64,000 nt of DNA. Origin: an uncultured Bifidobacteriaceae bacterium (lineage in GTDB: Bacteria; Actinomycetota; Thermoleophilia; Miltoncostaeales; Miltoncostaeaceae). Every line of letters begins with the position of its first letter. Position 1 is the stretch's first letter. The stretch lies in contig CAYMSM010000036.1 of NCBI GenBank assembly GCA_964393105.1, forward strand, positions 29,589 to 93,588. Reading direction: 5' to 3'. The notes under the pieces are model-generated. The model had not been told where the DNA came from, made no database searches, and saw nothing but the letters and a program-made list of their open reading frames with translations. The translations under genes were made by a program, and so were the position numbers. Shown one piece after another: positions 3,933-41,494 of the stretch.

Positions 3933-5189
3933 ATGGCGCTTGCGGCGGTGTTGCGGGTCAGGGAGTTCCGCAGGTTCTGGTTGGCGAGCCTCGTGTCGAA
4001 CGCCGGGTCGTGGCTGCAGGTCGTCGGCGCGGGCTTTCTGATCTACGACTTGACCGAGAGCCCCGCGGCGGTCGGCGCCCTGGCGCTTGTCGCCCGTGGG
4101 CCGGCGTTCGTGTTGTCGGGCTACGCGGGGCAGCTCGCCGATCGATTCGACCGGCGCGTCGTGGGCATCGTGACGTTTGCCGTGCAGGCGGTCGGCGCGG
4201 GTGGCCTGGCTGTGCTGAGCGCGCTCGACGCGGCCACGCCCGCGGTCATCTACGCGTCGACGTTCGTCGTGGGCGTGGGATTCGCGCTCGGCCTTCCCGC
4301 CATGCTCGCCCTGGTCGGCGTCCTGGCCGGGCGTGACAAGCTGCCCGAGGCGATCGCGCTGAACGCCGCGGGTATCAACGTCGCCCGGCTCGCCGGGCCG
4401 GCTCTGGGTGGCGTGTTGCTCGTCGTCGGCGGTCCGACGGTGTGCTTCGCCGTCAACGCGGCGTCGTTCGTCACGCTGATCGTGGTGCTGATCGGTCTGC
4501 GGGCATTCCCGCCTGCCGCGCCCGGCTCCCGTGCGCGCATACGCGAGGCCATGCGCTACGCGGCCGCAGACCCGGCGGCGCGGAGGCTCCTGATCGGCAT
4601 GGCGGTCTTCGCCGCACTGGCCGCGCCGGCGCAGGAGCTCGCCCCGGTCGTCGCGGCCACGCTCGACGCCCCCGCGGTGGGGCTGGGGCTCTTGCTGGGG
4701 ATGATGGGCGGCGGCGCGCTCGTCGGCGCCTGGCTTCTGGAGCGCTTCGGCCGGGCCGGCTACCCGCGGCATCACGCGCTGCCGACGGCCACGCTGGCCT
4801 TCGCGGTAGCGATGGGAATGCTCGCCGCCACGCCCTGGTTCTGGTTGGCGCTCGTCGCGATGTTTCTGGGTGGGGTGTTCTGGATCTGGATGTTCATCGC
4901 GACGAACGCCGCCATCCAGCTGGGCTCGCCGCCGGAGCTGATCGGCCGGATGCTCGGTCTCTACCAACTGGCCGTCCTCGGACCGATCGCGATTGGCGCG
5001 CAGGCCGCGGGTGGCCTGGCCGAGCTCGTCGGCATCCGCTGGAGCCTGGGCACGTGCGCGGCGCTCCTCGGCGCCTGGGGCGTCTGGAGCCTGATCAACA
5101 CGGTCCCCGAGATCGACGGAAGCCCGCACGCGGCCGGCGGCGGGATCCGCGAGGGCCTGCTCGCACGCCGGCATCGACCGGCACCCTGA
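3933..5189 (+). CDS. MFS transporter
   Basis: EFRRFWLASLVSNAGSWLQ...GQLADRFDRR and about 12 hydrophobic segments. ATG 3933 is preferred over the upstream 3840. Confidence 0.85.
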   Translation: MALAAVLRVREFRRFWLASLVSNAGSWLQVVGAGFLIYDLTESPAAVGALALVARGPAFVLSGYAGQLADRFDRRVVGIVTFAVQAVGAGGLAVLSALDAATPAVIYASTFVVGVGFALGLPAMLALVGVLAGRDKLPEAIALNAAGINVARLAGPALGGVLLVVGGPTVCFAVNAASFVTLIVVLIGLRAFPPAAPGSRARIREAMRYAAADPAARRLLIGMAVFAALAAPAQELAPVVAATLDAPAVGLGLLLGMMGGGALVGAWLLERFGRAGYPRHHALPTATLAFAVAMGMLAATPWFWLALVAMFLGGVFWIWMFIATNAAIQLGSPPELIGRMLGLYQLAVLGPIAIGAQAAGGLAELVGIRWSLGTCAALLGAWGVWSLINTVPEIDGSPHAAGGGIREGLLARRHRPAP

Positions 5190-5290
5190 CGGACCCTGCA
5201 ACTCCGGCTCGGGCGCCTGGGCAGCGTGAAGGTTTGGAAAGGGTGCCAGCAGACACGGATGTACCGAGAGCCGTTTGTTGATGGCTGATT

Positions 5291-5320
5291 CCGGCACGCG
5301 AAATGACCCTTCCGTACAGG
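5291..5320 (+). repeat. intergenic repeat family 2, copy 1 (CCGGCACGCGAAATGACCCTTCCGTACAGG)
   Basis: About 24/29 identical to 52156-52184. The 3' half recurs inverted at 28266-28282. Confidence 0.6.
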
Positions 5321-5351
5321 GGCGCGGTCATCGTCCACACCTGTAACGCCG

Positions 5352-6524
5352 GTGCTTCTCACTGTCGCCGAGACCCCGGCCCAGGCGAGCGGCCGGGAGC
5401 GCTCCGCTAATATCGCGCGGTTGGACGAAGTGCAGCTCACAGAGCGTCTGATCGCCTTTGACACTGCGACCCCGGCAGGTCTCGGCCCCGCACTCGACTT
5501 CGTCGAGGGATGGCTCGAAGGCTGTGGCGCGCGTGTGGAGCGGCGGGCCTTCGGCGACCGCAACTGCATCGTCGCGCGGGTCGGGTCCGGGACGCAACGG
5601 GTCATCTTCCACGGACACCTGGACGTCGTGCCCGGGCGCGCCGACCAGTACCGCGCGCGCATCGAGGACGGCCGGGTGTACGGACGCGGCGCCTACGACA
5701 TGAAGGGGGCGCTCGCGGCGATGATGCTGGCGACCTCCGACCTCGCCAAGGGCCTCGACGGCGCCGTGGTGGAGTTGGTCGTCGTCCCGGACGAGGAGCG
5801 CTCGGAGCCTGGCCCCAACTGCACCGAGATGCTCGTCGCCGATGGCATGCACGCGGATTTCGTGATCTGCGGCGAGCCGACCGACATGCAGGTGGGCGTC
5901 CAGGCCAAGGGCGTGTTGATGCTGCGCGCTCAGATCGAGGGCGTGGCCGCGCACGGCTCGACCCCGTGGCTCGGCCAGTCGGCGATCCTGGCCGGCGTGG
6001 ACTGCTACCGGGCAATCGAGACGCTGCCCTTCGCGGCGCAGTCCACCGACCTCTTCGCCCGCCCGTCGATCAACCTGGGGCGCATCCACGGTGGAGATGC
6101 GATCAACAAGGTCGCCGACCAGTGCCGCCTCGACATCGATGTGCGCTACCTGCCGGGGCAGGATCCCGACGAGGTCCTCGCGCAAATCCGAGGGTTGGGG
6201 GACTGGCAGGTCGAGGTCCTCGTCGAGCGCCCGCCCGCCTACGTCGATCCGACCGACCCGTTCGTCCAGCTCCTGCTACAGGCCATTGGCGCGCATGAGC
6301 CGACTGCGACGTCGGTCGGTCGCGACGGCGCCTCCGACGCCGTCGGGTTCCTGGCAGCGGGAGTCCCGGCCGTCGAGTTCGGTCCGCGCGGCGCCGGCCA
6401 CCACGGCCCCGCCGAGTACGTCGAGGCCGCGTGCCTGGCGTCGTATCGACGCTCGCTCGTCGACTTCGCCGGTCTTGTCGCGCAACGCATCGCGGAGCAT
6501 CCGACGGGGATGACCGCAGCGTGA
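5352..6524 (+). CDS. M20 family metallopeptidase (ArgE/DapE-like)
   Basis: FHGHLDVVP, GRGAYDMKG and PDEERS motifs. The start is uncertain (GTG 5352 or the TTG near 5421). Confidence 0.85.
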   Translation: MLLTVAETPAQASGRERSANIARLDEVQLTERLIAFDTATPAGLGPALDFVEGWLEGCGARVERRAFGDRNCIVARVGSGTQRVIFHGHLDVVPGRADQYRARIEDGRVYGRGAYDMKGALAAMMLATSDLAKGLDGAVVELVVVPDEERSEPGPNCTEMLVADGMHADFVICGEPTDMQVGVQAKGVLMLRAQIEGVAAHGSTPWLGQSAILAGVDCYRAIETLPFAAQSTDLFARPSINLGRIHGGDAINKVADQCRLDIDVRYLPGQDPDEVLAQIRGLGDWQVEVLVERPPAYVDPTDPFVQLLLQAIGAHEPTATSVGRDGASDAVGFLAAGVPAVEFGPRGAGHHGPAEYVEAACLASYRRSLVDFAGLVAQRIAEHPTGMTAA

Positions 6525-8383
6525 GCACCGTCGACCCGCCCGGCCGTCCGCTCGATCACGGTGACGCGACCTACTACTGCAAGCCGCGCCGCCGCCGGCC
6601 CGTACTCGGCGTCCTCGTGTGGTCGCTCGCGGCAGTGCTCGCCATCGCCGGCTCGGGGCTGCTCTTCGCCGAGCGCGTGGCCAACCGCGCGTTGTCAAAC
6701 GACCTCAACAACGCGCCCGAGGTCATAGAAGCACGAAAGATATTGTCCCAGGAGCCCAAGAGCCTGGGCGACCGTCCGTGGAACATCCTGGTCATCGGCT
6801 CGGACAAGCGAGCCGGCAAAGACGGTCCCAACGGTGGTCGTGGCGATACGCTGATCCTGGTTCGACTCGATCAGAAGCGCAACTTCGTGTCGATGCTGTC
6901 GTTTCCCCGGGACCTGTTCGTCCCCATCCCCGGCTACGGCGAGAACAAGATCAACGCAGCGTATGCGTTCGGCGGCTACAAGCTCGCGATCGAGACCATC
7001 CAGAATCTGACGGGCGAGAGGATCCACCACTTCTTCAACGTCGACTTCGAGGCGTTCCGGCGACTCGTCAACGATGCCGACGGCGTGTACCTAGACGTCG
7101 ACCGGTGGTACTTCAACGACAACAGCGGGGGGGGCGAGCGGTTCGAGCAACTCGACATCAAACCCGGCTACCAGAAGCTCAACGGCTTCGACGCGCTCGA
7201 CTACGTGCGCTACCGCCACGGCGACACCGACTTCGGGCGCATCGCGCGCCAGCAGGCGTTCCTGGCGGCGCTCAAGCGCGAGACGCGTGGCGCGCGCGGG
7301 CTTGACAACATCATCGACGCCGTGCACGACGAGGTCACAACGAGCCTCAAGTCGACCACACGACTCAAGGACTTCCTGCTGTTCGGCCTGCAGACCGAGA
7401 AGGATCACGTCGCCCGGACGCAGATCCCGACGGTCGGCCAGCGGGGCACGTCGTGTTGCGGGTCCGTGGTGCTGACGACGCCCCGGTTGATCGCCGAGGC
7501 CGTCGACACGTGGAAGAACCCGTTCTTCCTGACCGACGCGATCGTCAAGGCGACCGATCCGTCCAAGGTCGTCGTGACCGTCTACAACGGCAGCAAGAAG
7601 CTCGGCGTCGGCAGCAAGGCGGCCCTCGCGCTCGAGAAGCGCGGGTACAAGGTGTTCTTCGCCGGGGACGCCCCGGAAGGGTTCTATTCGACGACGTCGG
7701 TGTTCTACGCCGAGAGCAAACGCAACGAGGCCAAGTCCGTCCAGGCCCTCTTCGGACCGGGTGCCACGCTTGGGCAGCGCCGGGCGGGGCAGCCGGCAGA
7801 TGCGGACGTAATCGTTGTGGTCGGTGGCGACTACGAGGGGGTCACCACCCCCAAGCCTCCGGCTGCCCCCGTCAAGCAGAAGCCCGACACCGTGTTGACC
7901 ACCAGCCTGCGGCGGAGCGTGCAGACGGCGAAAAGCCTCTCGGGCATGGACCTGCTGGTTCCGACCCACTTGCCGCCGGGCTCGTCGGTCAGGTACATCC
8001 GGCTCTACAACGTCGACCGTGGCGATCGAGGTAAGCCCGACGCGCTCACGATCGTTGTGCAGATGCCGGGCTTCTCCAAGCTCGGCGGAACGCGCTACAT
8101 GACGATCACCCAGACCTCCATGAAGGACCCGCCGATCGTCGAGACCGGAAATTGCTGCGACAAGCAGGGCAACACCACCTTCTACAACGGCAAGAACATG
8201 CAGCGCTTGTTATGGAAGCGCGGGGCGATGACCTACTGGATCACGAACGCGCTCGACGAGTCGGTCACGGCCACGACGATCCGCGACATCAAGACGTTCA
8301 TGGTGCGGCCGGGCAAGGTCCGGGTCAAGAAGGGCCAGCGCGACACCGCCATCAGGGTGTCCGAGACGAGCAGGACCCCATAG
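6521..8383 (+). CDS. LytR-CpsA-Psr (LCP) family protein with additional C-terminal domains
   Basis: GTGA overlap with the M20 gene. TM anchor, then NILVIGSDKR...GDTLILVRLD...SFPRDL...INAAY LCP core. The C-terminal roughly 170 aa are unassigned. Confidence 0.85.
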   Translation: MSTVDPPGRPLDHGDATYYCKPRRRRPVLGVLVWSLAAVLAIAGSGLLFAERVANRALSNDLNNAPEVIEARKILSQEPKSLGDRPWNILVIGSDKRAGKDGPNGGRGDTLILVRLDQKRNFVSMLSFPRDLFVPIPGYGENKINAAYAFGGYKLAIETIQNLTGERIHHFFNVDFEAFRRLVNDADGVYLDVDRWYFNDNSGGGERFEQLDIKPGYQKLNGFDALDYVRYRHGDTDFGRIARQQAFLAALKRETRGARGLDNIIDAVHDEVTTSLKSTTRLKDFLLFGLQTEKDHVARTQIPTVGQRGTSCCGSVVLTTPRLIAEAVDTWKNPFFLTDAIVKATDPSKVVVTVYNGSKKLGVGSKAALALEKRGYKVFFAGDAPEGFYSTTSVFYAESKRNEAKSVQALFGPGATLGQRRAGQPADADVIVVVGGDYEGVTTPKPPAAPVKQKPDTVLTTSLRRSVQTAKSLSGMDLLVPTHLPPGSSVRYIRLYNVDRGDRGKPDALTIVVQMPGFSKLGGTRYMTITQTSMKDPPIVETGNCCDKQGNTTFYNGKNMQRLLWKRGAMTYWITNALDESVTATTIRDIKTFMVRPGKVRVKKGQRDTAIRVSETSRTP

Positions 8384-11106
8384 CCCGCGTCGGAGTCATC
8401 GGGGCCGGCTACGTCGGCCTGGTCACGGGTGTCTGCCTGGCATCACTCGGCCACGACGTGACCCTGCGCGACATCGACGCGCGCAAGATCGCGGCGCTCC
8501 ACGACGGCAAGATCCCGATCTACGAGCCGGGACTCGAGGATCTGATCGCCGCCAACCGCCACCGGCTCGACTTCACGCTCGACCTCGAGCGCCTCCTTGA
8601 GCGGTCGGATCTGATCTTCATCGCGATCGACACCCCGCCGACCTACTCGGGCGACGCCGACCTGTCGCGCGTGATGGGCTTCGTCGAGGAACTCGGCGCG
8701 ACCGGAGCCGACCCGCGCCACGTGTTGATCATGAAGAGCACCGTGCCGGTCGGCACTGGCCAGCGGGTGCGCGCCGAGCTCGATGCCCGCGGGCTTGGCG
8801 TTGTCGGGTACTGCTCCAACCCGGAGTTCCTCAAGGAGGGCGCCGCCATCGCGGACTTCCTCAGCCCGGACCGCGTGGTCATCGGCGAGTTTCGCCCCGA
8901 GGACGGCGACCGCGTCGCCACCCTGTTCGAGCCCCTCGACACCCCGATCATCCGGACCACGGTGCCGACGGCCGAGATGGTCAAGTACGCCTCCAACGCG
9001 TTCCTCGCGACAAAGATCAGCTTCATCAACGAGATCGCGAACGTCTGCGAGGAGGTCGGCGCCGACGTCGTCACCGTCGCGCAGGGCATGGGACTTGACC
9101 AGCGCATCGGCACGGCGTTCCTGAAGGCCGGCATCGGCTTCGGTGGGAGCTGCCTGCTCGGTGACGAGACCGTGCTCGCGCGCCGCGGGATGGAGGTCCG
9201 GCTCATCGAGTTGCGGGACCTCGCGCGCCAGCTCGCGCCCGACCTTGACGAGGATTCCCCGGCCGTCATCGAGGTGTCGGACCTCGAGGTGCTGGCGTGG
9301 CGCCCGGGAGCCGGTTCCGCCGAGTTCCTCCCGGTGTCCCTCCTGACCCGCCGGGAGTACGACGGTGACGTCGTGGAGGTGCGGACCAAGATGGGACGCA
9401 GGCTTCGGACGACCGCCGACCATCCGTTCGTGGCGAGGGTCGGCTCGTCGGATGGTCGCCTCGCCATACGGCTCGCGGGCGACTTGGAGCCGACCGACTG
9501 GCTGCCGGTCGCTCAGGGGCTGACACTCCCGGCATCGGACGAGTCCCTGCCGGTCGGCCGGATCCTCGATGCGCTCCCGGCGGCGCGACTCGGGCGGGAT
9601 GAGGTGAGGGCCCGCGTCGGATCCGGGCGTCTGGCGGCGGCCGGTCGCGATGCGGTCCGGCGCGTCATGGCCGAGTTACATCCGCACCAGAACCCCCACC
9701 TTCGCACTCACGACGTCATGGCCAACGGCACGGTCAGACTGGACGAGCTCGACGAGATCGGTTTGACCGCCGATCGCGCGACGATGGTCGGAACGGCCAA
9801 GAACGGGACGTACGTCCCCGCGGAGATCGAGCTGGACGACCGGTTCTGGCGCGTCGTCGGCCTGTACCTGGCCGAAGGGCACTGCGCGATCGACGGCGAT
9901 CGCCATCGCCTCTGCTGGTCGTTCCATCCCGAGGACGAACAGGATCTTGTCGACGAGGTGGCCGGGTACTGGCAGAGCCTGGGTGTCAGGGCGACCGTGC
10001 GCGTCGCGCCGACCGCATGCAATGTGACGGTGTCGTCGCGCCTCCTGGCCAACTGGTGGTTGTCGGTGCTGGGGCTTGGGGCGAATGCGTACCAGCAACG
10101 GCTTCCCGAGCTGATCTGGACGCAGCCGGCGTCCGCCAAGCATGCGTTGCTTTCGGGGGCGTGGCTCGGGGACGGTTCGTGCTCGCTGATCCGTGGAGGC
10201 CCGAGCGCCATACTGGAGTACGGGACCATCAGCAGGCAACTCGCAGACGGGATCCTGCGGCTTCTGGGCGACCTCGAGGTGATGGCACGCCTCAAGGTCG
10301 GACGTACTGCGTTGAGCACCGGAGACACCTACTGGATCTGCATCTCCGGGGCGGACCAGGTCGAGCGGCTCCAGTCGTTCATCAAGGCGCAGCGACGCGA
10401 GGCGCGGCTTGCCTCGATCGCCCGGCAGGCCAAGCGCATCGCGCCCACCGGATACCGCAGGCGCGAGCGGGGTACGGCCTGGGTGCGTGTCACCGGCGCG
10501 ACGCGCACCCCGTTCTCCGGTCCGGTCTACTCGCTCGAGGTGCCGGATGCCGCGACGTTCGTCGCGACCGCTGGGCTGATCGTCCACAACTGCTTCCCGA
10601 AGGATGTCTCGGCGCTCAAGCAACTCGCCGGCAACTCGGGGTACCACTTCCAGTTGCTCAACTCGGTGATCGAGGTCAACGAGCTGCAAAAGCGGCGAGT
10701 CATCGGCAAGTTGCGCAAGCACCTGGGATCGCTCGAGGGCGCGACGGTCGCGCTGCTGGGGCTTGCGTTCAAGCCCGAGACCGACGACATGCGTGAGGCG
10801 TCCAGCCTGGTGTTGGCCGCTCGGCTTCTGGCCGAAGGCGCACGAGTGCGCGCGTATGACCCGGTCGCCGGCGACGCCGCGGGTGAGCGCCTGCGCGGGG
10901 TCGATCTGTGCGCCACCGCGACTCAAGCGGTCGCCGGAGCCGACGCGGCGGTGCTGGTCACCGAGTGGCGCCAGATCATCGATCTGGACTGGCCGGCGCT
11001 CGCCCCGACGATGAACCGCGCCGTGCTCATCGACGGCCGCAACGCGCTCGACCCGCAATCGATGCGCGATGCGGGCTTTGCCTACGAGGGCATCGGCCGG
11101 GCGTGA
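8380..11106 (+). CDS. ugd: UDP-glucose 6-dehydrogenase precursor containing an intein
   Basis: VGVIGAGYVGLV Rossmann N-terminus, NPEFLKEG, GFGGS|C...HN|CFPKD, LGLAFKPETDD. The exteins sum to about 428 aa. The start codon is non-canonical or uncertain (see findings). Confidence 0.9.
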   Translation: MARVGVIGAGYVGLVTGVCLASLGHDVTLRDIDARKIAALHDGKIPIYEPGLEDLIAANRHRLDFTLDLERLLERSDLIFIAIDTPPTYSGDADLSRVMGFVEELGATGADPRHVLIMKSTVPVGTGQRVRAELDARGLGVVGYCSNPEFLKEGAAIADFLSPDRVVIGEFRPEDGDRVATLFEPLDTPIIRTTVPTAEMVKYASNAFLATKISFINEIANVCEEVGADVVTVAQGMGLDQRIGTAFLKAGIGFGGSCLLGDETVLARRGMEVRLIELRDLARQLAPDLDEDSPAVIEVSDLEVLAWRPGAGSAEFLPVSLLTRREYDGDVVEVRTKMGRRLRTTADHPFVARVGSSDGRLAIRLAGDLEPTDWLPVAQGLTLPASDESLPVGRILDALPAARLGRDEVRARVGSGRLAAAGRDAVRRVMAELHPHQNPHLRTHDVMANGTVRLDELDEIGLTADRATMVGTAKNGTYVPAEIELDDRFWRVVGLYLAEGHCAIDGDRHRLCWSFHPEDEQDLVDEVAGYWQSLGVRATVRVAPTACNVTVSSRLLANWWLSVLGLGANAYQQRLPELIWTQPASAKHALLSGAWLGDGSCSLIRGGPSAILEYGTISRQLADGILRLLGDLEVMARLKVGRTALSTGDTYWICISGADQVERLQSFIKAQRREARLASIARQAKRIAPTGYRRRERGTAWVRVTGATRTPFSGPVYSLEVPDAATFVATAGLIVHNCFPKDVSALKQLAGNSGYHFQLLNSVIEVNELQKRRVIGKLRKHLGSLEGATVALLGLAFKPETDDMREASSLVLAARLLAEGARVRAYDPVAGDAAGERLRGVDLCATATQAVAGADAAVLVTEWRQIIDLDWPALAPTMNRAVLIDGRNALDPQSMRDAGFAYEGIGRA
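9151..10590 (+). mobile_element. class 1 intein with LAGLIDADG homing-endonuclease domain (480 aa)
   Basis: Begins CLLGDETVLA. Block B is TTADHPF. LAGLIDADG-like motifs VVGLYLAEGHC and LSGAWLGDGSC. Ends GLIVHN and is followed by Cys+1. Confidence 0.85.
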
Positions 11107-12179
11107 CCTGCGCAGTCATCCTGGTGGGCGGCGAGGGCAGGCGCCTCCGCCCCCTGACCGACACACGTCCCAAGCCCATGATGCCGCTGGTCGACCGGCC
11201 GTTCGTCGCCCACCAGCTGGACCAGCTGCGCAGGTTCGGCGTCACCGACGTGATCTTCTCGTGTGGCTACCGGCCCGAGGCCCTCGAGGGCCACTTCGGC
11301 GACGGTGCCAATCTGCGCATGCGGCTGCGCTACGTGGTCGACCCCATACCGCTCGGCACGGCCGGCGCGGTAAAGAACGCCGAGCCGCTTCTGGGCGACG
11401 GACAGGTGCTGGTGCTGAACGGCGACGTGTTGACGGATCTCGATCTGGCCGCGCTCGTCGCCTGGCACGACGCGGCGGGCGTCGCGGGAACGCTCGCGCT
11501 GACGCCCGTCACGGATCCCTCCCGCTACGGCCTCGTGCGGCTGCATTCCGATCGCCGCGTCGAGGAGTTCCTGGAGAAGCCCGGTCCCGATGAGCTTCGG
11601 CCGGGTGAGCCGTTCCTGGTCAACGCCGGCACATATCTTCTCGAACGCGAGGTCCTCGATCAGATCCCCGCGGGTGAGCCGTGCTCGATCGAGCGCGACA
11701 TCTTTCCCGGTCTTGCTCGGGCGGGACGACTCGCCGGCTACCCCAGCGACAGCTATTGGCGTGACATCGGGACCCCGGACTCCTACCTGCAGGCACACCT
11801 CGACGTGCTGGCGGGCGCGGTGCGCACGGACTCGCCGACCGGCGACCGTCATGTCGGTTCGGGCGCACAACTGGCCGCCGACGCCCGGGTCGGCGCTGGC
11901 AGCACGATCGGTCCGGACGTCGTCGTGGGGCCCGGCGCGATCGTCATCGGGAGCGTCGTCGGCGCGGGTTCGAGCATCGGTCGCGACGCGCAGATCGAAG
12001 GAGCACTTCTCGGCGTCGGCGTCAGCGTCGGTGATCGTGCCAGGATTGGCGCCGGCGCCGTGGTCGGTGACGGCGCTACCATCGCGGCCGGTGTGACGGT
12101 CGGGGGGGTTGTGATCCCGACCGGCGCAGACGTGGACCAATCGCAGACCCAGGGGGAGGTGCGCGGTGAGCCTGCTTGA
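11103..12179 (+). CDS. sugar-1-phosphate nucleotidyltransferase (mannose-1-phosphate guanylyltransferase-like) with C-terminal hexapeptide-repeat domain
   Basis: GTGA overlap with ugd. ILVGGEGRRLRPLTDTRPKPM nucleotide-binding loop. The Gly/Val/Ile-rich C-terminus suggests a left-handed beta-helix. Confidence 0.85.
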   Translation: MTCAVILVGGEGRRLRPLTDTRPKPMMPLVDRPFVAHQLDQLRRFGVTDVIFSCGYRPEALEGHFGDGANLRMRLRYVVDPIPLGTAGAVKNAEPLLGDGQVLVLNGDVLTDLDLAALVAWHDAAGVAGTLALTPVTDPSRYGLVRLHSDRRVEEFLEKPGPDELRPGEPFLVNAGTYLLEREVLDQIPAGEPCSIERDIFPGLARAGRLAGYPSDSYWRDIGTPDSYLQAHLDVLAGAVRTDSPTGDRHVGSGAQLAADARVGAGSTIGPDVVVGPGAIVIGSVVGAGSSIGRDAQIEGALLGVGVSVGDRARIGAGAVVGDGATIAAGVTVGGVVIPTGADVDQSQTQGEVRGEPA

Positions 12180-13257
12180 CCACCCAGCAATCTTTGACAT
12201 CGATTCGCTCGGCCTGATCGCCGAGACCGGCCGCGCGGTCGAGATGTTCGACGCCGCGATCGCGAGTGCCAGGGCCGTCGAGATCCCGTTTCCTGCCGGG
12301 GCGATCACAAACGTCGCGATCTGCGGAATGGGTGGTTCGGCCATCGCCGGTGACCTGATCATCGGCGCGTTCTGGGACCGACTGCGCCGGCCTGTCCAGG
12401 TGCTGCGCGACTACTTCCTGCCCGGCTGGGTGGGGGAGGACACGCTCGTCATCGGCTCGTCGTTCTCGGGCACCACCGAGGAAACCCTGACCTGCATGCT
12501 CGACGCCATCGACCGGACCTGCCCGGCGATCGGGATCTCGACCGGCGGGCGCTTTGCCGACTACTACGTGCCCCGCGGCGTGCCGCTCGTCCAGGTGGCG
12601 CAGTCGCCCATGCCACGCGCGGCGCTGGTGCAGATGCTGGCGGCGACGCTGGTGGTATTGGAGCGCTTCGAGGTGCTCCCACCGCTCGAGTCCGAGCTGG
12701 TCGAGGCGCGCGAGATGCTGCAGGGGGCGGTACGTGCCTACGGCCCCGACGCTCCCGAGGAGACGAACCCGGCCAAGCAGGTCGCGTCGATGCTGAACGA
12801 ACGGCTGCCGCTGATCTGGGGCGCCGAGATCACCGCACCGATCGCCTACCGCTGGAAGTGTCAGCTCAACGAGAACGCCAAGGTCCCCGCGTACTGCTCG
12901 CGCTTGCCCGAGCACAACCACAACGAGATCGTGGGCATCGAGGGAATGGGCGCGCAAGGCGCCCGGACGCGCGTCATCATGCTACTCGACCCGCGCAACC
13001 ACCGCCAGGTGGAGCGGCGGTTTGGGATCACCGAGGAATTGGTCAGCCCGTACGTCGAAGGGGTCACGCGGATCGAGGCCGAGGGCCGCGGCGCCCTGGC
13101 GCGGATGCTCGACCTGGTGCTTCTGGGCGACTACGCCTCGCTGTACCTGGCATGCCTCCGGCAGGTCGACCCCGGACCGATCGCAATAATCGACAAGCTC
13201 AAAGATCGCCTCGCGAACACCCCGTACGGTCGCACCGCCGAACCCCCGCCAGGATGA
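12166..13257 (+). CDS. bifunctional phosphoglucose/phosphomannose isomerase (SIS domain)
   Basis: CGMGGSAIAGD, SFSGTTEET and RWKCQLNENAK...PEHNHNE motifs. 14-nt overlap with the upstream gene. Confidence 0.8.
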   Translation: MSLLDHPAIFDIDSLGLIAETGRAVEMFDAAIASARAVEIPFPAGAITNVAICGMGGSAIAGDLIIGAFWDRLRRPVQVLRDYFLPGWVGEDTLVIGSSFSGTTEETLTCMLDAIDRTCPAIGISTGGRFADYYVPRGVPLVQVAQSPMPRAALVQMLAATLVVLERFEVLPPLESELVEAREMLQGAVRAYGPDAPEETNPAKQVASMLNERLPLIWGAEITAPIAYRWKCQLNENAKVPAYCSRLPEHNHNEIVGIEGMGAQGARTRVIMLLDPRNHRQVERRFGITEELVSPYVEGVTRIEAEGRGALARMLDLVLLGDYASLYLACLRQVDPGPIAIIDKLKDRLANTPYGRTAEPPPG

Positions 13258-14390
13258 GTATCGCGCCGCCGCCGCCCGGACTCGCGCCGCAGGACATCCT
13301 CGCGCTCGGCGACGGGGAGGTGCGGATGCTCGACCAGACCCGCCTGCCGGGCGAGCTGGTCAGCGTGACGCTGCGAAGCTGGCCCGAGGTCGTCGATGCG
13401 ATCACGACGATGGTGGTACGTGGTGCCCCGGCGATCGGCATCGCCGCGGCGATGGGCGTGGCCCTCGCGGGTCAGCGGGGGTCCAGTGAACTCGGGTCGC
13501 TCAAGCAGGAGCTCGTTCGGGCAGGGCAGGCATTGCGCGCGGCGCGCCCGACGGCCGTCAACCTGGCGTGGGCAGTCGACGCGCAGCTTCGGATCGTCGC
13601 CGAGCACACCGGCTCTGCGTCGGATCTCGTCGCGGCGCTCGTGGCGACGGCCAGACGCATCCACGCGGATGAGGTCGACCGATGCGAGCGCATCGGCGCC
13701 CACGGACGCGCGCTGGTGCACCGTGGCGCGCGGATCCTGACCCACTGCAACGCGGGGGCACTCGCGACCGGCGGGTACGGAACCGCACTCGGCGTCGTGC
13801 GCTCGGCATTTGCGGTCGATCCGACCGTGCGCGTGATCGTCGACGAGACCCGCCCGCTCCTGCAAGGCGCCCGGTTGACCACGTGGGAGTTGGGGCAGGA
13901 GGGGATCCCGTACACGCTGATCGCCGACAACATGGCGGCGACGATGATGGCCGAGGGCCGCGTCACCCACGTCGTGGTGGGCGCGGACCGCATCGCGGCC
14001 AATGGCGACGTTGTCAACAAGATCGGGACCTACGGTGTCGCGATCCTGGCCCGGGAGCACGGCATTCCGTTCATCGTTGCTGCGCCGACATCGACCCTGG
14101 ACCTCTCGCTGCCGTCCGCGGCCGAGATCCCGATCGAGGAACGCGCCAGCGCGGAAGTCCTGGGAATCGGCCTTTTCGGCCGGGACGCGACCCCGGCCGG
14201 CGCCACGGTCGCAAACCCGGCGTTCGACCGCACACCGCACCGGCTCGTGTCGGCGATCGTCACCGAGCAGGGCGTCCACCGCCCCCCCTACGACCGCACC
14301 CTGCGCGCCGCCTGGAACGCCGCGACTGAGCAGGGCTCGCCGACCCTTGTCCTCGGTCCGCATGAGGACGTTCCTCTGTCCGACCACTAG
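13254..14390 (+). CDS. mtnA: eIF-2B alpha/beta/delta-like isomerase (methylthioribose-1-phosphate isomerase family)
   Basis: ATGA overlap. MLDQTRLP, VRGAPAIGIAAA, THCNAGALAT and GADRIAANGDVVNKIGTY motifs. Confidence 0.75.
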   Translation: MSIAPPPPGLAPQDILALGDGEVRMLDQTRLPGELVSVTLRSWPEVVDAITTMVVRGAPAIGIAAAMGVALAGQRGSSELGSLKQELVRAGQALRAARPTAVNLAWAVDAQLRIVAEHTGSASDLVAALVATARRIHADEVDRCERIGAHGRALVHRGARILTHCNAGALATGGYGTALGVVRSAFAVDPTVRVIVDETRPLLQGARLTTWELGQEGIPYTLIADNMAATMMAEGRVTHVVVGADRIAANGDVVNKIGTYGVAILAREHGIPFIVAAPTSTLDLSLPSAAEIPIEERASAEVLGIGLFGRDATPAGATVANPAFDRTPHRLVSAIVTEQGVHRPPYDRTLRAAWNAATEQGSPTLVLGPHEDVPLSDH

Positions 14391-14506
14391 TAGTAGCCGT
14401 CGCCACAGACGACATCCTCGACGTGTCCCACCATCCAGACACGGGATGGATGCCCACCCGCCATCGAGCCCCGAGACGCGCCTCCCGTACGGGGCGAGCC
14501 GGCCAA

Positions 14507-14545
14507 ACGGCCAATTGGCCGAATCCGGGTCGGTCAATCGTTACA
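14507..14545 (-). repeat. intergenic repeat family 1, copy A
   Basis: ACGGCCAATTGGCCGAATCCGGGTCGGTCAATCGTTACA contains the perfect 14-bp palindrome CGGCCAATTGGCCG. Confidence 0.6.
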
Positions 14546-14705
14546 CGAACTGTAACGAAGGCGTGACATACATGGCACACATAGGTGGTGCGGTGTAACA
14601 GGTTGTCCGGGCACGATCCTCGTATGACGGATGCTCGGGACCTGGGTGGGGATGTGTGCGTGGACGGGCGGGGTGAGCCAACGTCCACCCGAGATGGCGG
14701 GGCGG

Positions 14706-15467
14706 CTAGCCGAACGACAGCTCCAGGGTCTCGCCGTCGGCGGGTGTGGCGACGCGGTGGATCAAGCCTGCCGCGTCCACGGCCGCACGGAGGGCTGCAC
14801 GGTCAAGGCCGCAGTGGTTCATCGCCTCCATGTGGACCGCGACGACGAGGGCGTCGGGCGCGGCGTTGCACGTGGCTATGACGTCTGGCACATCCATCGT
14901 GATGGGGTCGCCGTGGATGAACCGCGCGGCTCCTGCGTTGACGACGATGACGGCGGGCTCGTGCGTGGTGATCGCGTCCTGGACCTCCTGGCACCAGACC
15001 GTGTCACCCGCGATGTACAGCGTCGGCTCCCCCTCGGCGGCGATGACGTACCCGCTGACGTCGCCCATCTCCTTACCGATCGCTCCCGTGCCGTGCTGCC
15101 CGCCGGTCCGGCTGATCCGCAGTCCGTCCAGATCGAGCGTCCCGTCGAAGGTCCTGGCCTCGAGGCCCGCGCGCACCAGCATCGGCTGGTCGCGTGGTTG
15201 GCACAGGACGGGCCGATCGCGTGGGACCGCGCCCAGCGCGGTGCGGTCGAAATGGTCGCCGTGCAAATGGGTGACGAGTGTCGCGGAGATCCCGGCGACC
15301 ACATCCAGCGGCTGCATGGGAAGGGCGACGAGCGGGTTGGGCCGAGGGTTCGGCGTCTCGGCCACGGGCGGTTGCGTTCCGACCGGATCGAGCATCGGAT
15401 CGATCAGGAGCCTGATGTCGCCGAACTGCACCAAGAGCGTCGCGTGCCGGAGGAGTCGGACTCGCAT
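14706..15467 (-). CDS. MBL-fold metallo-hydrolase
   Basis: THLHGDHFD metal-binding motif. About 253 aa. An alternative start lies at 15476. Confidence 0.8.
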   Translation of the reverse strand: MRVRLLRHATLLVQFGDIRLLIDPMLDPVGTQPPVAETPNPRPNPLVALPMQPLDVVAGISATLVTHLHGDHFDRTALGAVPRDRPVLCQPRDQPMLVRAGLEARTFDGTLDLDGLRISRTGGQHGTGAIGKEMGDVSGYVIAAEGEPTLYIAGDTVWCQEVQDAITTHEPAVIVVNAGAARFIHGDPITMDVPDVIATCNAAPDALVVAVHMEAMNHCGLDRAALRAAVDAAGLIHRVATPADGETLELSFG

Positions 15468-33548: not shown

Positions 33549-33907
33549 GGGCCCGAAACAGTTTCGACGAGGTGGGACGGGAACGATCAGCGAGCCGCGG
33601 ACCCGGTGGACCGCGTTAACAACCGGGACCAATGTAGCTGCGGACAACCGCCAGCTCGCTTACGCCGCCTAAACACCGGACGTAAGCCATCGGGCCCCCT
33701 GTGAGTCGCGAGGGGGATCCCCGGTGTCGATAGCGACTCTGGCCCCGAAGCAGCGGCTTCCGGCGGAGGGGCGAGATCTCAGGGAAGCCTGGCGGGGGGA
33801 TGGTTGGCCGACGGTGACGCCCTCCGCGAGAAAGTCATCGACGGCTGCGCTCGGAGAAGTCGTTTCACAAGCACTTTCGGACGCCGGGGCAGTACCGGCC
33901 GGGTCCA
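33549..33907 (+). ncRNA. ssrA: tmRNA (transfer-messenger RNA)
   Basis: Acceptor stem GGGCCCG/CGGGUCC with G3.U plus discriminator A. GUUUCGAC D-analogue. PK1 (33596-33627). Tag ORF GCU GCG GAC AAC CGC CAG CUC GCU UAC GCC GCC UAA. Stop codon lies in the loop of helix GCUUACG/CGUAAGC. PK2/PK3 stems. GGAC plus a 5-bp T-stem. Confidence 0.88.
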
Positions 33908-34072
33908 CTCACCGGGCGGGTTCTGGAGACAACCAGGACTCGCCGGCCAAGAGTGTGGGACCGCGACACGCCGTCAGGCTGATCCCGGCTGCCGCGTGCG
34001 CCCACCTCGGGCGGGGCTCTCCGATGGCCCAGGCCTGTGCGACGACCAGCGCAAGCGCGGCGGGGACGAAGA

Positions 34073-39118: not shown

Positions 39119-41494
39119 CTACCCGGTGACCCCCGGGATCCGGGTGGCACCTGCGATCGAGACGCGGGTGCAGCGCGTGGTCTTCGCGACCACTCCGTTC
39201 GACGGGGTTGCGATCGCCAAGTTGCAGCGTCGCCCGCTGATCGTGCGGTCGATCCGGAACGTGGCTCGCACCGTCCGGCTCTGGCCCGGGGCCAGCGTAC
39301 CGATACGCCAGCGAACCGCGCCCGTGCTGACCGATGCGCCTCGCACCTTGCCGAACACCGAGAACCCACTGGGCACGACGTCGCGCAGAACGACGCCGAG
39401 CGCGTCGGCCGTGCCGCGGTTGCTCACCGTGATGCGGTAGGTGACGAGTTGCCCCGCGATCGCCGTCGCCGGACCGGTCTTGGTCACCCGAAGGCGCGGA
39501 GAGGGGACGGGGGGCACGGGGGTGGGGCCCCCGATCACCGTCGGTGGTGGCTGCTGCGGCGTTCCGGGTGGAAGTGTCGCACAGACCGTCACTGTGATCG
39601 GGCCCGCGGTCCTGGAGGCTCCGTCAAGGGCCATGGTGGCGACGTTGTCGTAGTCCAAACACCCCGTCGTCGCCGGGCCGGTCAAGCTCCTCATGTAGGT
39701 CGTCGTTGTGGTCTTGCTGATCGGACCTTCGAAGAGCGTTTGAATCGGTCGGTCCGAGAACGCGTCCGTTACGGTCACGGAGTCGTTGACCACGGTCGTC
39801 GGGTCTCCGACGACGACGGCCGCTGATCCCGATGCCGATGTCGGCTGGCCGTTGACGGTGAAGGCGGCCGTTGCGGTGTTCGTCCCGGTCGGCTTCGCGT
39901 TGCCAACATCGCAGGAGTAGCTGAACGACGTCATCCCGTTGGCCGGAACCGAGGCCACCGAGCCGGCCACGGTGCAGGTGCCCAGCGCGGGATCGAGCTG
40001 ATCTGTCACCGTCACCGGCAGCGCGGTCGGGTAGGGGCTCTTGACGGTAATGGAGCCGGCGACCTTGAAGCCCGTGTCGGTTGGAGCGCTCTTGGTTGCC
40101 GTGACCGTGTAGGTGGCGGTAGCCGACCCGCCCGGTGCGACGTTGAACCTCGTGCTGTCCACGCTCTTCGTGATCGTCCAGTCGAAGGTGCGTGTGAACT
40201 CGACGTTCGCGGTCTTGGTCACGACGACCTCGCACACGACGAACGTCGTCGCGGGAACGCTCGTCTTCGTGAGCTCCACAGCCGGCATCGGCGGCATGTG
40301 CGGTTTGTCCTTGGGTTTGTCACCCGGCTTTGGCGTGTTCCTCTTGTGCTTCTTCGATCGCTTGACCACAGCCTTCTTCCTTGCGCCCGCCTTGGTCTTG
40401 GAGCTCTCGTACTTGGCGTCGCCGTCCCTGGCCTTGTCGCCTCCACGTGCCTTGCCCGGACGGGACTTGACGGTCACGGTCACGGTGTTCGAGACCACGC
40501 CACACGCGTTGGCCGCCTGCGTTCCGACGTAGGTCAGGGTCTCACCGGGAGTCAGGACGCCGTCGTCCTTGACGCAGTGGTCGTTCTTCGAGAGGGACTT
40601 GGACGAGTGGTTCCTGTCGTCGTCCTTGCATTCGGGGTCGTCGTTGTCCTTGCAGTCGTCCTTCGCGGACGTCGGCGATTTGGACGAGTTCTTCTTCTCG
40701 CAGGTCGAGGACCTCGGCGTCCTCACGCTCTTGGCGTGCTTCGCGGAGCCGGTGGGCATGTTGCTCGAGGGCGGGCCGAACGTGACGCCGGGGTCGGTCA
40801 GAACGGGGTTGGAGAGCGGCATGTTGCCCGTGTTGGTGACCGTCACGATCCACTCGATGGTCGCACCCTGGTTGTAGCTCGACGCCTTGGCCACCTTGGT
40901 GACCTCGAAGTCGGGGCATCGCAGGAAGATCTTCGCGGTCGCTGACGCCTCAATGGCGGCGCTCTGCTGCTCGGCGACCTTGGCGGAGGCCGTCTCCTCG
41001 GCCGTCACCTTCACGGTGTTCCTCACCCAACCGCAGGTCTTGGCCATCGCCTGGGTGCCGGTGTAGGTCAGGGTCTCGTGCTTCTGGAGCAGCGTCGGAT
41101 CGTCGACGCACGACGAGCCGTTGCTGCTGTTGGTGTGGTCCGACTTGTCGTCCTCGTCGGGCTTGGCGGCGCAGTGCTCGTCGAAGGAGCTGGCGGGGTC
41201 GCCGAAATCGACGTCCGGATCGACCAGGGTGATGTTCCCCAGATCGCGCTTGCCGTCGTTGGTGACGACCACCTTCCAAGTGATGGTCGTGGTTTCACCG
41301 GCGGTTTCGGCCTTGACGGCCTTCTTGGACACCTTGATGTCGCTGGAATGCGGGTCGGTCTCGGACCCGCTGGCCAACACGGTGGCCGGCAGCGCTACGG
41401 TGGCGCCGAGCGCCACCAGCAGGGCACATGCTTTCGCCCATCGTCGAACGTTCACTGCAAGTCTCCTCATCGAGCTATCTACTTTTAGGGACAT
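39119..41494 (-). CDS. secreted DUF11/CARDB-like repeat protein
   Basis: Signal peptide MRRLAVNVRRWAKACALLVALGATVALPATVLA. Repeated modules VVVTNDGKRDLGNITLVDP, VTVTNTGNMPLSNPVLTDP and ITVSNRGTADALGVVLRDV. Lys-rich linker. Confidence 0.8.
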   Translation of the reverse strand: MSLKVDSSMRRLAVNVRRWAKACALLVALGATVALPATVLASGSETDPHSSDIKVSKKAVKAETAGETTTITWKVVVTNDGKRDLGNITLVDPDVDFGDPASSFDEHCAAKPDEDDKSDHTNSSNGSSCVDDPTLLQKHETLTYTGTQAMAKTCGWVRNTVKVTAEETASAKVAEQQSAAIEASATAKIFLRCPDFEVTKVAKASSYNQGATIEWIVTVTNTGNMPLSNPVLTDPGVTFGPPSSNMPTGSAKHAKSVRTPRSSTCEKKNSSKSPTSAKDDCKDNDDPECKDDDRNHSSKSLSKNDHCVKDDGVLTPGETLTYVGTQAANACGVVSNTVTVTVKSRPGKARGGDKARDGDAKYESSKTKAGARKKAVVKRSKKHKRNTPKPGDKPKDKPHMPPMPAVELTKTSVPATTFVVCEVVVTKTANVEFTRTFDWTITKSVDSTRFNVAPGGSATATYTVTATKSAPTDTGFKVAGSITVKSPYPTALPVTVTDQLDPALGTCTVAGSVASVPANGMTSFSYSCDVGNAKPTGTNTATAAFTVNGQPTSASGSAAVVVGDPTTVVNDSVTVTDAFSDRPIQTLFEGPISKTTTTTYMRSLTGPATTGCLDYDNVATMALDGASRTAGPITVTVCATLPPGTPQQPPPTVIGGPTPVPPVPSPRLRVTKTGPATAIAGQLVTYRITVSNRGTADALGVVLRDVVPSGFSVFGKVRGASVSTGAVRWRIGTLAPGQSRTVRATFRIDRTISGRRCNLAIATPSNGVVAKTTRCTRVSIAGATRIPGVTG

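Follow-up and report, generated by a model that had tools for sequence, protein, structure and literature searches.

The window analysed here is the whole 64,000-nucleotide stretch of contig CAYMSM010000036.1, from an uncultured actinobacterium. It carries a long open reading frame (ORF; 8152-11106, +) that encodes a UDP-glucose 6-dehydrogenase (Ugd). This ugd frame is interrupted by 480 codons (1440 nt; 9151-10590, +) that are in frame and free of stop codons, run from a Cys1 to an Asn480, and split the GFGGS/CFPKD sequence of the enzyme immediately before its Cys codon. The insert has the features of an intein with a nested homing endonuclease, and its parts, together with the flanking exteins and the two halves of the putative homing site, were assigned as follows.

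8380..9150, + strand: N-extein, with the NAD-binding and most of the central domain, ending ...GIGFGGS (Pfam UDPG_MGDP_dh_N 1.2e-44 and UDPG_MGDP_dh 1.2e-35; PDB alignment)
9136..9150, + strand: left half of the disrupted putative homing site, GGCTTCGGTGGGAGC (from the empty alleles L081 and L082)
9151..10590, + strand: predicted intein (translation, Pfam/NCBIfam profiles, PDB match, AlphaFold2 (AF2)/Foldseek, published udp inteins)
9151..9540, + strand: N-terminal splicing (Hint) region (NCBIfam intein_Nterm at residues 1-94; beta-rich at residues 1-121 in the AF2 model)
9151-9189, + strand: block A, CLLGDETVLARRG, with the Cys1 codon at 9151-9153
9397-9438, + strand: block B, RRLRTTADHPFVAR (including TTADHPF), with Thr88 at 9412-9414 and His91 at 9421-9423
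9541..9825, + strand: linker or putative DNA-recognition region between Hint and endonuclease (helical in the AF2 model; best full-length structural match PI-PkoII)
9826..10425, + strand: LAGLIDADG homing-endonuclease core (Pfam LAGLIDADG_3 4.6e-10; Foldseek I-DmoI, I-Tsp061I)
9844-9885, + strand: LAGLIDADG motif 1, FWRVVGLYLAEGHC (GLYLAEG), with the acidic Glu242 at 9874-9876
10144-10182, + strand: LAGLIDADG motif 2, ALLSGAWLGDGSC (GAWLGDG), with the acidic Asp341 at 10171-10173
10426..10590, + strand: C-terminal splicing region (NCBIfam intein_Cterm at residues 458-480)
10519-10566, + strand: block F, GPVYSLEVPDAATFVA
10567-10590, + strand: block G, TAGLIVHN, with the terminal His479-Asn480
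10591..11106, + strand: C-extein, UDP-binding domain, starting CFPKD (Pfam UDPG_MGDP_dh_C 4.9e-30; TGA stop at 11104-11106)
10591-10605, + strand: right half of the disrupted putative homing site, TGCTTCCCGAAGGAT (from the empty alleles L081 and L082)

The predicted intein product starts with CLLGDETVLARRG and ends with TAGLIVHN, preceded by ...AGIGFGGS and followed by CFPKDVSALK. The TxxH motif of block B is present as T88-A-D-H91, and at the downstream junction (H479-N480/C+1, spanning 10585-10593) the terminal Asn is followed by the Cys+1 extein nucleophile. The Pfam profile Intein_splicing (PF14890) matched with 47.5 bits against a cut-off of 35.8, and both NCBIfam splicing-domain profiles (TIGR01445 and TIGR01443) exceeded theirs, with 37.3 bits against 24.5 for intein_Nterm and 19.4 against 15.6 for intein_Cterm. 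A preliminary description of this DNA, made from the letters alone, had proposed a 480-residue, 1440-nt insert at 9151-10590, and translation reproduced it to the base. The starting Cys, the TTADHPF block, the two LAGLIDADG motifs and the His-Asn end that it had listed were all found where it had placed them, and its intein assignment was borne out by splicing-domain and LAGLIDADG profiles, all above curated cut-offs. Judged on sequence, this agreement of motifs and profiles is far beyond chance.

The central part of the insert matched the Pfam profile LAGLIDADG_3 (PF14528) with 40.1 bits against a cut-off of 22.5. An AF2 model of the intein, computed with a 14-sequence alignment as input, was confident (mean predicted local distance difference test score, pLDDT, 89.1; predicted template modelling score, pTM, 0.90), and its secondary structure followed a duplicated alpha-beta-beta-alpha-beta-beta-alpha order at residues 230-400. 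The top PDB matches of the model found with Foldseek were all bifunctional intein endonucleases, led by PI-PkoII (2cw7; E 3.6e-26, TMq 0.68) and including TliVMA (7qsu/7qss), Pho VMA, PI-PfuI (1dq3) and PI-SceI (1vde). PI-PkoII was also the best PDB match by sequence (E 4.9e-15). The endonuclease core matched the stand-alone LAGLIDADG enzymes I-DmoI and I-Tsp061I (TMt 0.66-0.75), and the Hint part matched mini-inteins, including 5o9j and 4e2t. Once freed, the intein is probably a site-specific endonuclease.

The two exteins make up a complete Ugd. The 5' limit of the N-extein was set at a conserved ATA at 8380 because the frame has no canonical start codon there; counted from this codon the joined exteins comprise 428 amino acids, or 425 if counted from the position of the GTG start in relatives. 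The joined sequence aligned end to end with the PDB Ugds 4a7p, 3gg2 and 2y0c (E ~1e-106), gap-free across GGSCFPKD, so that the Udg of about 428 residues expected in the preliminary description after removal of the insert was recovered. The three domain profiles PF03721, PF00984 and PF03720 all scored above their cut-offs, as did the subfamily profile TIGR03026 (380 bits against 189.8). The more specific profiles NF047673 TuaD (447 bits, cut-off 700) and AglM (360 bits, cut-off 670) fell short; these scores were lowered because the precursor, in which the intein splits the match, was scored rather than the spliced protein. The substrate, UDP-glucose as against another nucleoside diphosphate sugar, is presumptively assigned by homology only.

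The Cys codon TGC at 10591-10593 encodes both the +1 splice nucleophile and the motif Cys of CFPKD. From established enzymology, we take the Cys of GGSCFPKD to be the catalytic nucleophile, equivalent to Cys260 of the Streptococcus pyogenes enzyme and Cys276 of human UGDH. Because the insertion lies exactly N-terminal to this Cys, the +1 splice nucleophile would be the catalytic thiol. The insertion at the catalytic Cys proposed in the preliminary description thus agrees with the split of the motif, the catalytic role itself being drawn from the enzymology. Insertion at catalytic residues is the usual habit of inteins and no special feature of this one. We can soundly infer from the arrangement that Ugd activity would depend on splicing, and the envelope polymer made by this operon might be affected in turn, as the preliminary description suggested.

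The corresponding empty sites came from relatives of the host gene. When the spliced extein was used as query, none of the 120 nearest Ugd homologues (94-75% identity) carried an intein; all were 400-484 amino acids long with Ugd domains only. Judging by their names they belong to Thermoleophilia/Miltoncostaeaceae, and the Miltoncostaeaceae-like exteins among them are 77-78% identical. The two closest loci for which DNA was compared, L081 and L082, were 94% and 89% identical to the window extein at the amino acid level. The gene order LytR-CpsA-Psr (LCP) family gene, ugd, NTP-transferase gene is common to the window, L081 and L082; in L081 it continues with PGI-like and IF-2B-family genes, and the L082 contig ends inside the NTP-transferase gene. 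The empty site of L081 reads GGCTTCGGTGGCAGC/TGCTTTCCCAAGGAT (written across the junction, GGCTTCGGTGGCAGCTGCTTTCCCAAGGAT) and that of L082 ...GGCAGC/TGCTTTCCGAAAGAT, to be set against the occupied site of the window, GGCTTCGGTGGGAGC, 1440 nt, TGCTTCCCGAAGGAT. Comparison of the empty L081 site with the occupied one indicates that the insertion was exact, without duplication or deletion. Intein-free alleles had been named in the preliminary description as the means of defining the homing site, and L081 and L082 now serve in this role.

These alleles also bear on whether the insert might be a native accessory domain of Ugd that is never excised, which we regard as extremely unlikely. Nothing was found in favour of this reading. 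Such a domain would have to contain every intein splice motif and an intein-endonuclease fold, and would break up an active-site motif that runs uninterrupted through every solved Ugd, yet the segment is precisely absent from orthologues up to 94% identical. On the last two grounds the native domain was ruled out as a candidate, as far as sequence data allow. An assembly artefact, in which the contig would have taken up a piece of an intein-bearing ugd from a different organism of the community, is likewise very unlikely. It could draw on the facts that the related sequences all come from metagenomes, that the copies found are at most 56% identical and that the window protein is absent from the protein collection. 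Against this, both junctions are exact to the codon, the two exteins show the same closeness to L081 without a break in identity where the intein is inserted, and the GC content, GC content at third codon positions (GC3) and codon usage of the intein match those of the neighbouring genes.

The intein belongs to a widespread family that occupies the same site. Searching with the intein as query found at least 525 protein clusters; the best 120 matches were all in Ugd, with a top identity of 55%, and all 65 complete copies among them were located at G[FYW]GGS/C...N/CFPKD. When GTDB genomes, one for each species, were scanned with a profile, relatives were found in at least 184 species-level genomes. 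The best 80 of these 184 were all metagenome-assembled genomes (MAGs), affiliated with Gaiellaceae, Solirubrobacterales, Thermoleophilaceae, Dormibacterota, Anaeromyxobacter/Myxococcota and Planctomycetota, and also with Longimicrobiales (Gemmatimonadota), Acidobacteria/Acidobacteriota, Acidimicrobiales and Egibacteraceae. The bacterial clade consists chiefly of Thermoleophilia (Gaiellales, Solirubrobacterales) and Dormibacterota.

Residues needed for splicing and cleavage were strongly conserved in an alignment of 76 sequences, i.e., 75 genomic copies with a canonical junction plus the window. Cys1, His91 and Asn480 were invariant (100%) and Thr88 was found in 99%, and the acidic residues of the endonuclease were retained as Glu in 74 of 76 (97%; Glu242) and Asp in 75 of 76 (99%; Asp341). 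The linker at 9541-9825 was the least conserved region, with a mean fraction identical to the window of 0.31 vs. 0.45-0.64 in the other regions. Outside this alignment, five of the 80 genomic copies (L054, L056, L065, L070 and L074) carry a C-terminal Gln (EQ, HQ or PQ) rather than Asn before Cys+1, in intact frames. At the penultimate position (equivalent to 10585-10587 of the window), 59 genomic copies have His and 16 have Ser, and the metagenome proteins also include Lys, Asp, Asn and Gly. In two copies the acidic residue of the first LAGLIDADG motif (equivalent to 9874-9876 of the window) is replaced by Ala, and their endonuclease is probably inactive.

The median ratio of nonsynonymous to synonymous substitution rates (dN/dS; Nei-Gojobori, 36 pairs more than 68% identical) was 0.22 overall, 0.22 in the splicing regions and 0.19 in the endonuclease core, values that are approximate since dS was high in many pairs. 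The family is under purifying selection, and with 0.19 against 0.22 the constraint on the endonuclease is no weaker than that on the splicing domain. Pairwise identities of exteins and inteins were weakly correlated (Spearman 0.22). The inteins of the Planctomycetota loci L036 and L032 were ~60% identical to those of the Gaiellaceae loci L001-L021, with exteins only 41-46% identical. The weak correlation and this contrast together indicate horizontal movement, and L036 and L032 clearly illustrate how inteins of the bacterial clade have passed between phyla. The patchy distribution over phyla, the weak co-divergence of exteins and inteins and the low dN/dS of the endonuclease core lend indirect support to a putative site-specific cleavage of intein-less alleles.

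Considering the motifs, the fold, the empty sites and the family together, we interpret the element as a class-1 (Cys1/Asn/Cys+1) intein with a nested two-motif LAGLIDADG homing endonuclease, a splicing-competent parasite that was gained by homing, and assign this reading a probability of roughly 0.9. The anatomy, the family membership, the empty sites, the conserved catalytic residues and the purifying selection in the family are direct results of the analysis; from them we infer that the intein splices, that it cleaves DNA and that it was gained here as opposed to being lost many times elsewhere. The steps proposed for splicing follow the standard class-1 pathway, as suggested by the conserved residues, the fold and the behaviour of the family. 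In the high-GC, Thermoleophilia-like actinobacterium, ugd would be translated as a precursor of ~908 amino acids, in which GFGGS and CFPKD are 480 residues apart and which could therefore not work as a dehydrogenase. An N-S acyl shift at Cys1 would then produce a thioester, to be attacked by the Cys+1 thiol that later serves in the active site; cyclisation of Asn480 would release the intein, and an S-N shift would restore the peptide bond to yield a 428-residue Ugd with GGSCFPKD intact. The freed intein would cut intein-less ugd alleles at GGCTTCGGTGGCAGC/TGCTTTCCCAAGGAT, and repair would copy the intein into the break (homing).

With regard to the history in this lineage, horizontal gain by homing is most likely; it explains most simply why the site is empty in every relative sampled, down to an extein identity of 75%. 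The nearest intein-bearing extein, that of the Thermoleophilia MAG locus L013, shares 80% identity with the window extein, and the two inteins are 53% identical. An intein-profile scan detected no intein relative on IMG/VR viral contigs that would point to a phage vector, and no further intein was found in the 64-kb window, where SecA, RNase R, PheT, ArgC and DnaE are intein-free.

Several observations weigh against the proposed interpretation or parts of it. The composition of the intein matches the host (GC 0.694; GC3 0.863 vs. 0.90; relative synonymous codon usage, RSCU, r 0.92), and recent transfer could not be recognised by this route, the GC, GC3 and RSCU of intein and host being indistinguishable and thus uninformative. 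Comparison with the empty alleles showed no divergent co-conversion tract flanking the intein; identity to them is flat across the junction (~0.89 to L081), and the flanking genes are 86-89% identical. Since the composition is host-like and no such tract was found, recent transfer is not demonstrated and the gain cannot be dated; an old gain followed by repeated loss in the relatives may be the alternative history. The window intein is 46-56% identical to the other members of its clade, with 55-56% for its best relative, a level that points to no donor. At block F, position 4 is Ser in the window intein, where model inteins have Asp. Most published udp inteins, including that of Methanocaldococcus jannaschii, have YS at block F, and the Fervidibacteria intein has YD; the Ser is probably tolerated because it is a trait of most of the udp family. 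To our knowledge, no splicing or cleavage experiment exists for any udp-allele intein. Finally, the ugd frame lacks an ATG, GTG or TTG between 8212 and 8458, and the Rossmann motif RVGVIGAGYVG begins at 8386, within this interval.

Taken by itself, the missing canonical start means that ugd might be unexpressed, and the gene model of the preliminary description holds for the frame that runs through the insert but not for the start that it implied. The element could accordingly be seen as decaying, with a non-splicing intein or an untranslated ugd, a pseudogene in the making, and UDP-glucuronate coming from elsewhere or being dispensable. Apart from the start interval, the window has GTC (8389-8391) where L081 and L082 carry GTG, and in a genome of 68.5% GC long open frames arise easily (many spurious long ORFs were found), which makes the intact 480-codon frame weak evidence; there is also no second ugd copy within the 64 kb of the window. 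However, GTC without a canonical start also occurs in the intein-free loci L083 and L084, where ugd is intact. All splice-site and endonuclease catalytic residues are kept, the 4-nt stop/start overlaps of the operon are intact, and the exteins are 94% identical to L081 in protein but 89% in DNA, which means that the changes are mostly synonymous. Decay is quite unlikely in our judgement.

The start anomaly is better regarded as a trait of the clade, since it is shared with the intact, intein-free L083 and L084 (Ugd proteins 86-91% identical). In L081 an in-frame stop lies just upstream, so that a long N-terminal extension is not available there. The sequence CCATAGC(C/G)CGC is kept in all five loci (window and L081-L084), as is I-A-R-V-G at the protein level; the start region corresponds to 8380-8391 in the window, ~1281-1292 in L081 and ~5992-6003 in L082. 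In the ugd frame, the ATA that begins at 8380 shares two nucleotides with the TAG (8381-8383) that ends the LCP gene, reading ATAG, the same 4-nt geometry as that of GTGA at 11103-11106 at the downstream end of ugd. This arrangement suggests AUA initiation by termination-reinitiation coupling at the LCP stop. In relatives ugd has been called at 402, 411, 425 or 484 amino acids, and gene callers evidently struggle with its start. The genes around ugd are the following.

6431..8383, + strand: LCP family gene, upstream of ugd (Pfam LytR_cpsA_psr 4.1e-39, LytR_C; synteny in L081-L084)
11103-12179, + strand: NTP-transferase with hexapeptide domain (Pfam; GTGA overlap with the ugd stop)
12166-13257, + strand: bacterial PGI/SIS protein gene (Pfam; 14-nt overlap, 12166-12179, with the NTP-transferase gene)
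about 13281-14390, + strand: IF-2B family isomerase gene (Pfam)

No promoter-like site and no + strand terminator-like site was found within 5000-15000, and because of this and of the overlaps, the genes from LCP to IF-2B look like one translationally coupled operon.

The position of ugd in a tightly coupled envelope-sugar operon bears on another possibility, namely that the intein has been domesticated as a switch. Splicing would then be conditional, blocked by a reversible Cys1-Cys+1 disulfide or by some other stress that keeps Ugd as an inactive precursor, and would gate, after translation, UDP-glucuronate for an LCP-linked envelope glycopolymer according to redox state. Cys1 and Cys+1 do flank the intein, and redox-trapped Cys1/Cys+1 inteins are known from Pab PolII and MoaA. 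The +1 Cys is the presumed catalytic thiol, which would make activity strictly splice-dependent, and the family is under purifying selection. On the other hand, all 120 of the nearest relatives lack the intein, so that an adaptive role is hard to argue for this lineage. Equal constraint on endonuclease core and splicing domain, together with the patchy spread across phyla, is the signature of a mobile parasite. A switch of this kind, which would not exclude the reading as a homing intein, is unlikely. If it were true, this benefit would partly maintain the large clade in soil bacteria, with its constrained sequence.

Elsewhere in the window, a full-length tmRNA gene was located at 33549-33910 (+; Rfam 88 bits, gathering score 47). 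ARAGORN disagrees with Rfam here, as it reported neither tRNA nor tmRNA in the whole window; the 64 kb yielded no tRNA gene. An ORF of 791 amino acids at 39119-41494 (-), with DUF11 and DUF7507 repeats, probably encodes a large surface or cell-wall protein unrelated to the intein.

The homing intein proposed here is ordinary in kind, a textbook intein, and comes from a bacterial lineage in which such inteins are common in MAGs. Its interest lies in the family. The udp allele, described as mainly archaeal with two bacterial cases, has a large and diverse bacterial reservoir in uncultured soil lineages, spanning at least 184 species-level genomes and at least 6 phyla. This would rank Ugd among the more often invaded bacterial genes outside the replication and repair set stressed by Novikova et al. 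(PMC4760082). In annotation pipelines such genes appear simply as 'UDPglucose 6-dehydrogenase', in many cases called as partial or split, and the intein goes unnoticed. The window together with L081/L082 forms a natural pair of occupied and empty alleles (89% DNA identity, same operon) that is suited to tests of homing-site recognition. Because the +1 nucleophile would be the catalytic thiol, enzyme activity would be a built-in read-out of splicing, which could serve studies of conditional splicing or as an engineering scaffold.

Compared with solved Ugds from Sphingomonas elodea (4a7p) and Burkholderia (BceC, 2y0c) and with 3gg2, the intein-removed protein has the same three domains and full-length fold. 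The GGSCFPKD motif of the spliced window Ugd is identical to that of 4a7p and 3gg2, but it is restored only after removal of the intein; the three solved enzymes are without intein, unlike the window Ugd.

The bifunctional inteins PI-PkoII (Thermococcus kodakarensis Pol intein-2), PI-PfuI, PI-SceI and Tli/Pho VMA likewise combine a Hint domain with a nested LAGLIDADG endonuclease, the two being separated by an additional region. They differ from the window intein in their hosts (DNA polymerase, RNR, V-ATPase) and target sites, and share 11-18% identity with it over the structural alignment. Splicing and cleavage have been demonstrated for these enzymes, whereas the window intein is known from sequence alone.

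The closest known system is the published udp allele (InBase name Mja UDP-GD), comprising seven inteins of Halobacteria, six of other Euryarchaeota (including M. jannaschii) and two of Bacteria, Dictyoglomus thermophilum and Fervidibacteria/EM19 (PMC4071816). Named members include Halorubrum spp., Methanocaldococcus, Methanococcus, Methanotorris and Thermococcus gammatolerans (PMC4071816). In the halobacterial alignment the gap lies at GWGG(S)/CFPKD, and the inteins start with Cys and end with His-Asn (Soucy et al. 2014 supplements, PMC4071816). UDP-GlcDH ranks in the top 15 intein hosts of archaea but is missing from the corresponding list for bacteria (Novikova et al. 2016, PMC4760082). The remark in the preliminary description that Udg inteins are mainly archaeal thus fits the literature of 2014-2016 (PMC4071816, PMC4760082), but a bacterial copy is not new in kind, given the published Dictyoglomus and Fervidibacteria inteins and hundreds of copies in public MAGs. 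No paper describing the bacterial sub-clade was found in the literature searched, which is no proof of novelty.

By full-length blastp the window intein was 32.5% identical to that of Halorubrum saccharovorum (E 9.5e-72), 26% to those of T. gammatolerans and EM19, and 23% to that of Dictyoglomus (E 1.5e-29); the match to M. jannaschii (26%, E 5.9e-44) covered query residues 68-480. The udp allele and the window intein share the host protein and the insertion point before the GG(S)CFPKD Cys, the architecture of Hint plus two LAGLIDADG motifs in 450-480 amino acids, and the idiosyncratic motifs TK/RTKMxxxxxxTxDHP, FWRxxGxYLxEGH, IAPTG and VYSLEV. The large bacterial clade of the window intein is separate from the published udp members, with 24-38% identity to them. 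By these sequence criteria the window intein is a diverged member of the catalogued udp/UDP-GD allele, within a large bacterial sub-clade.

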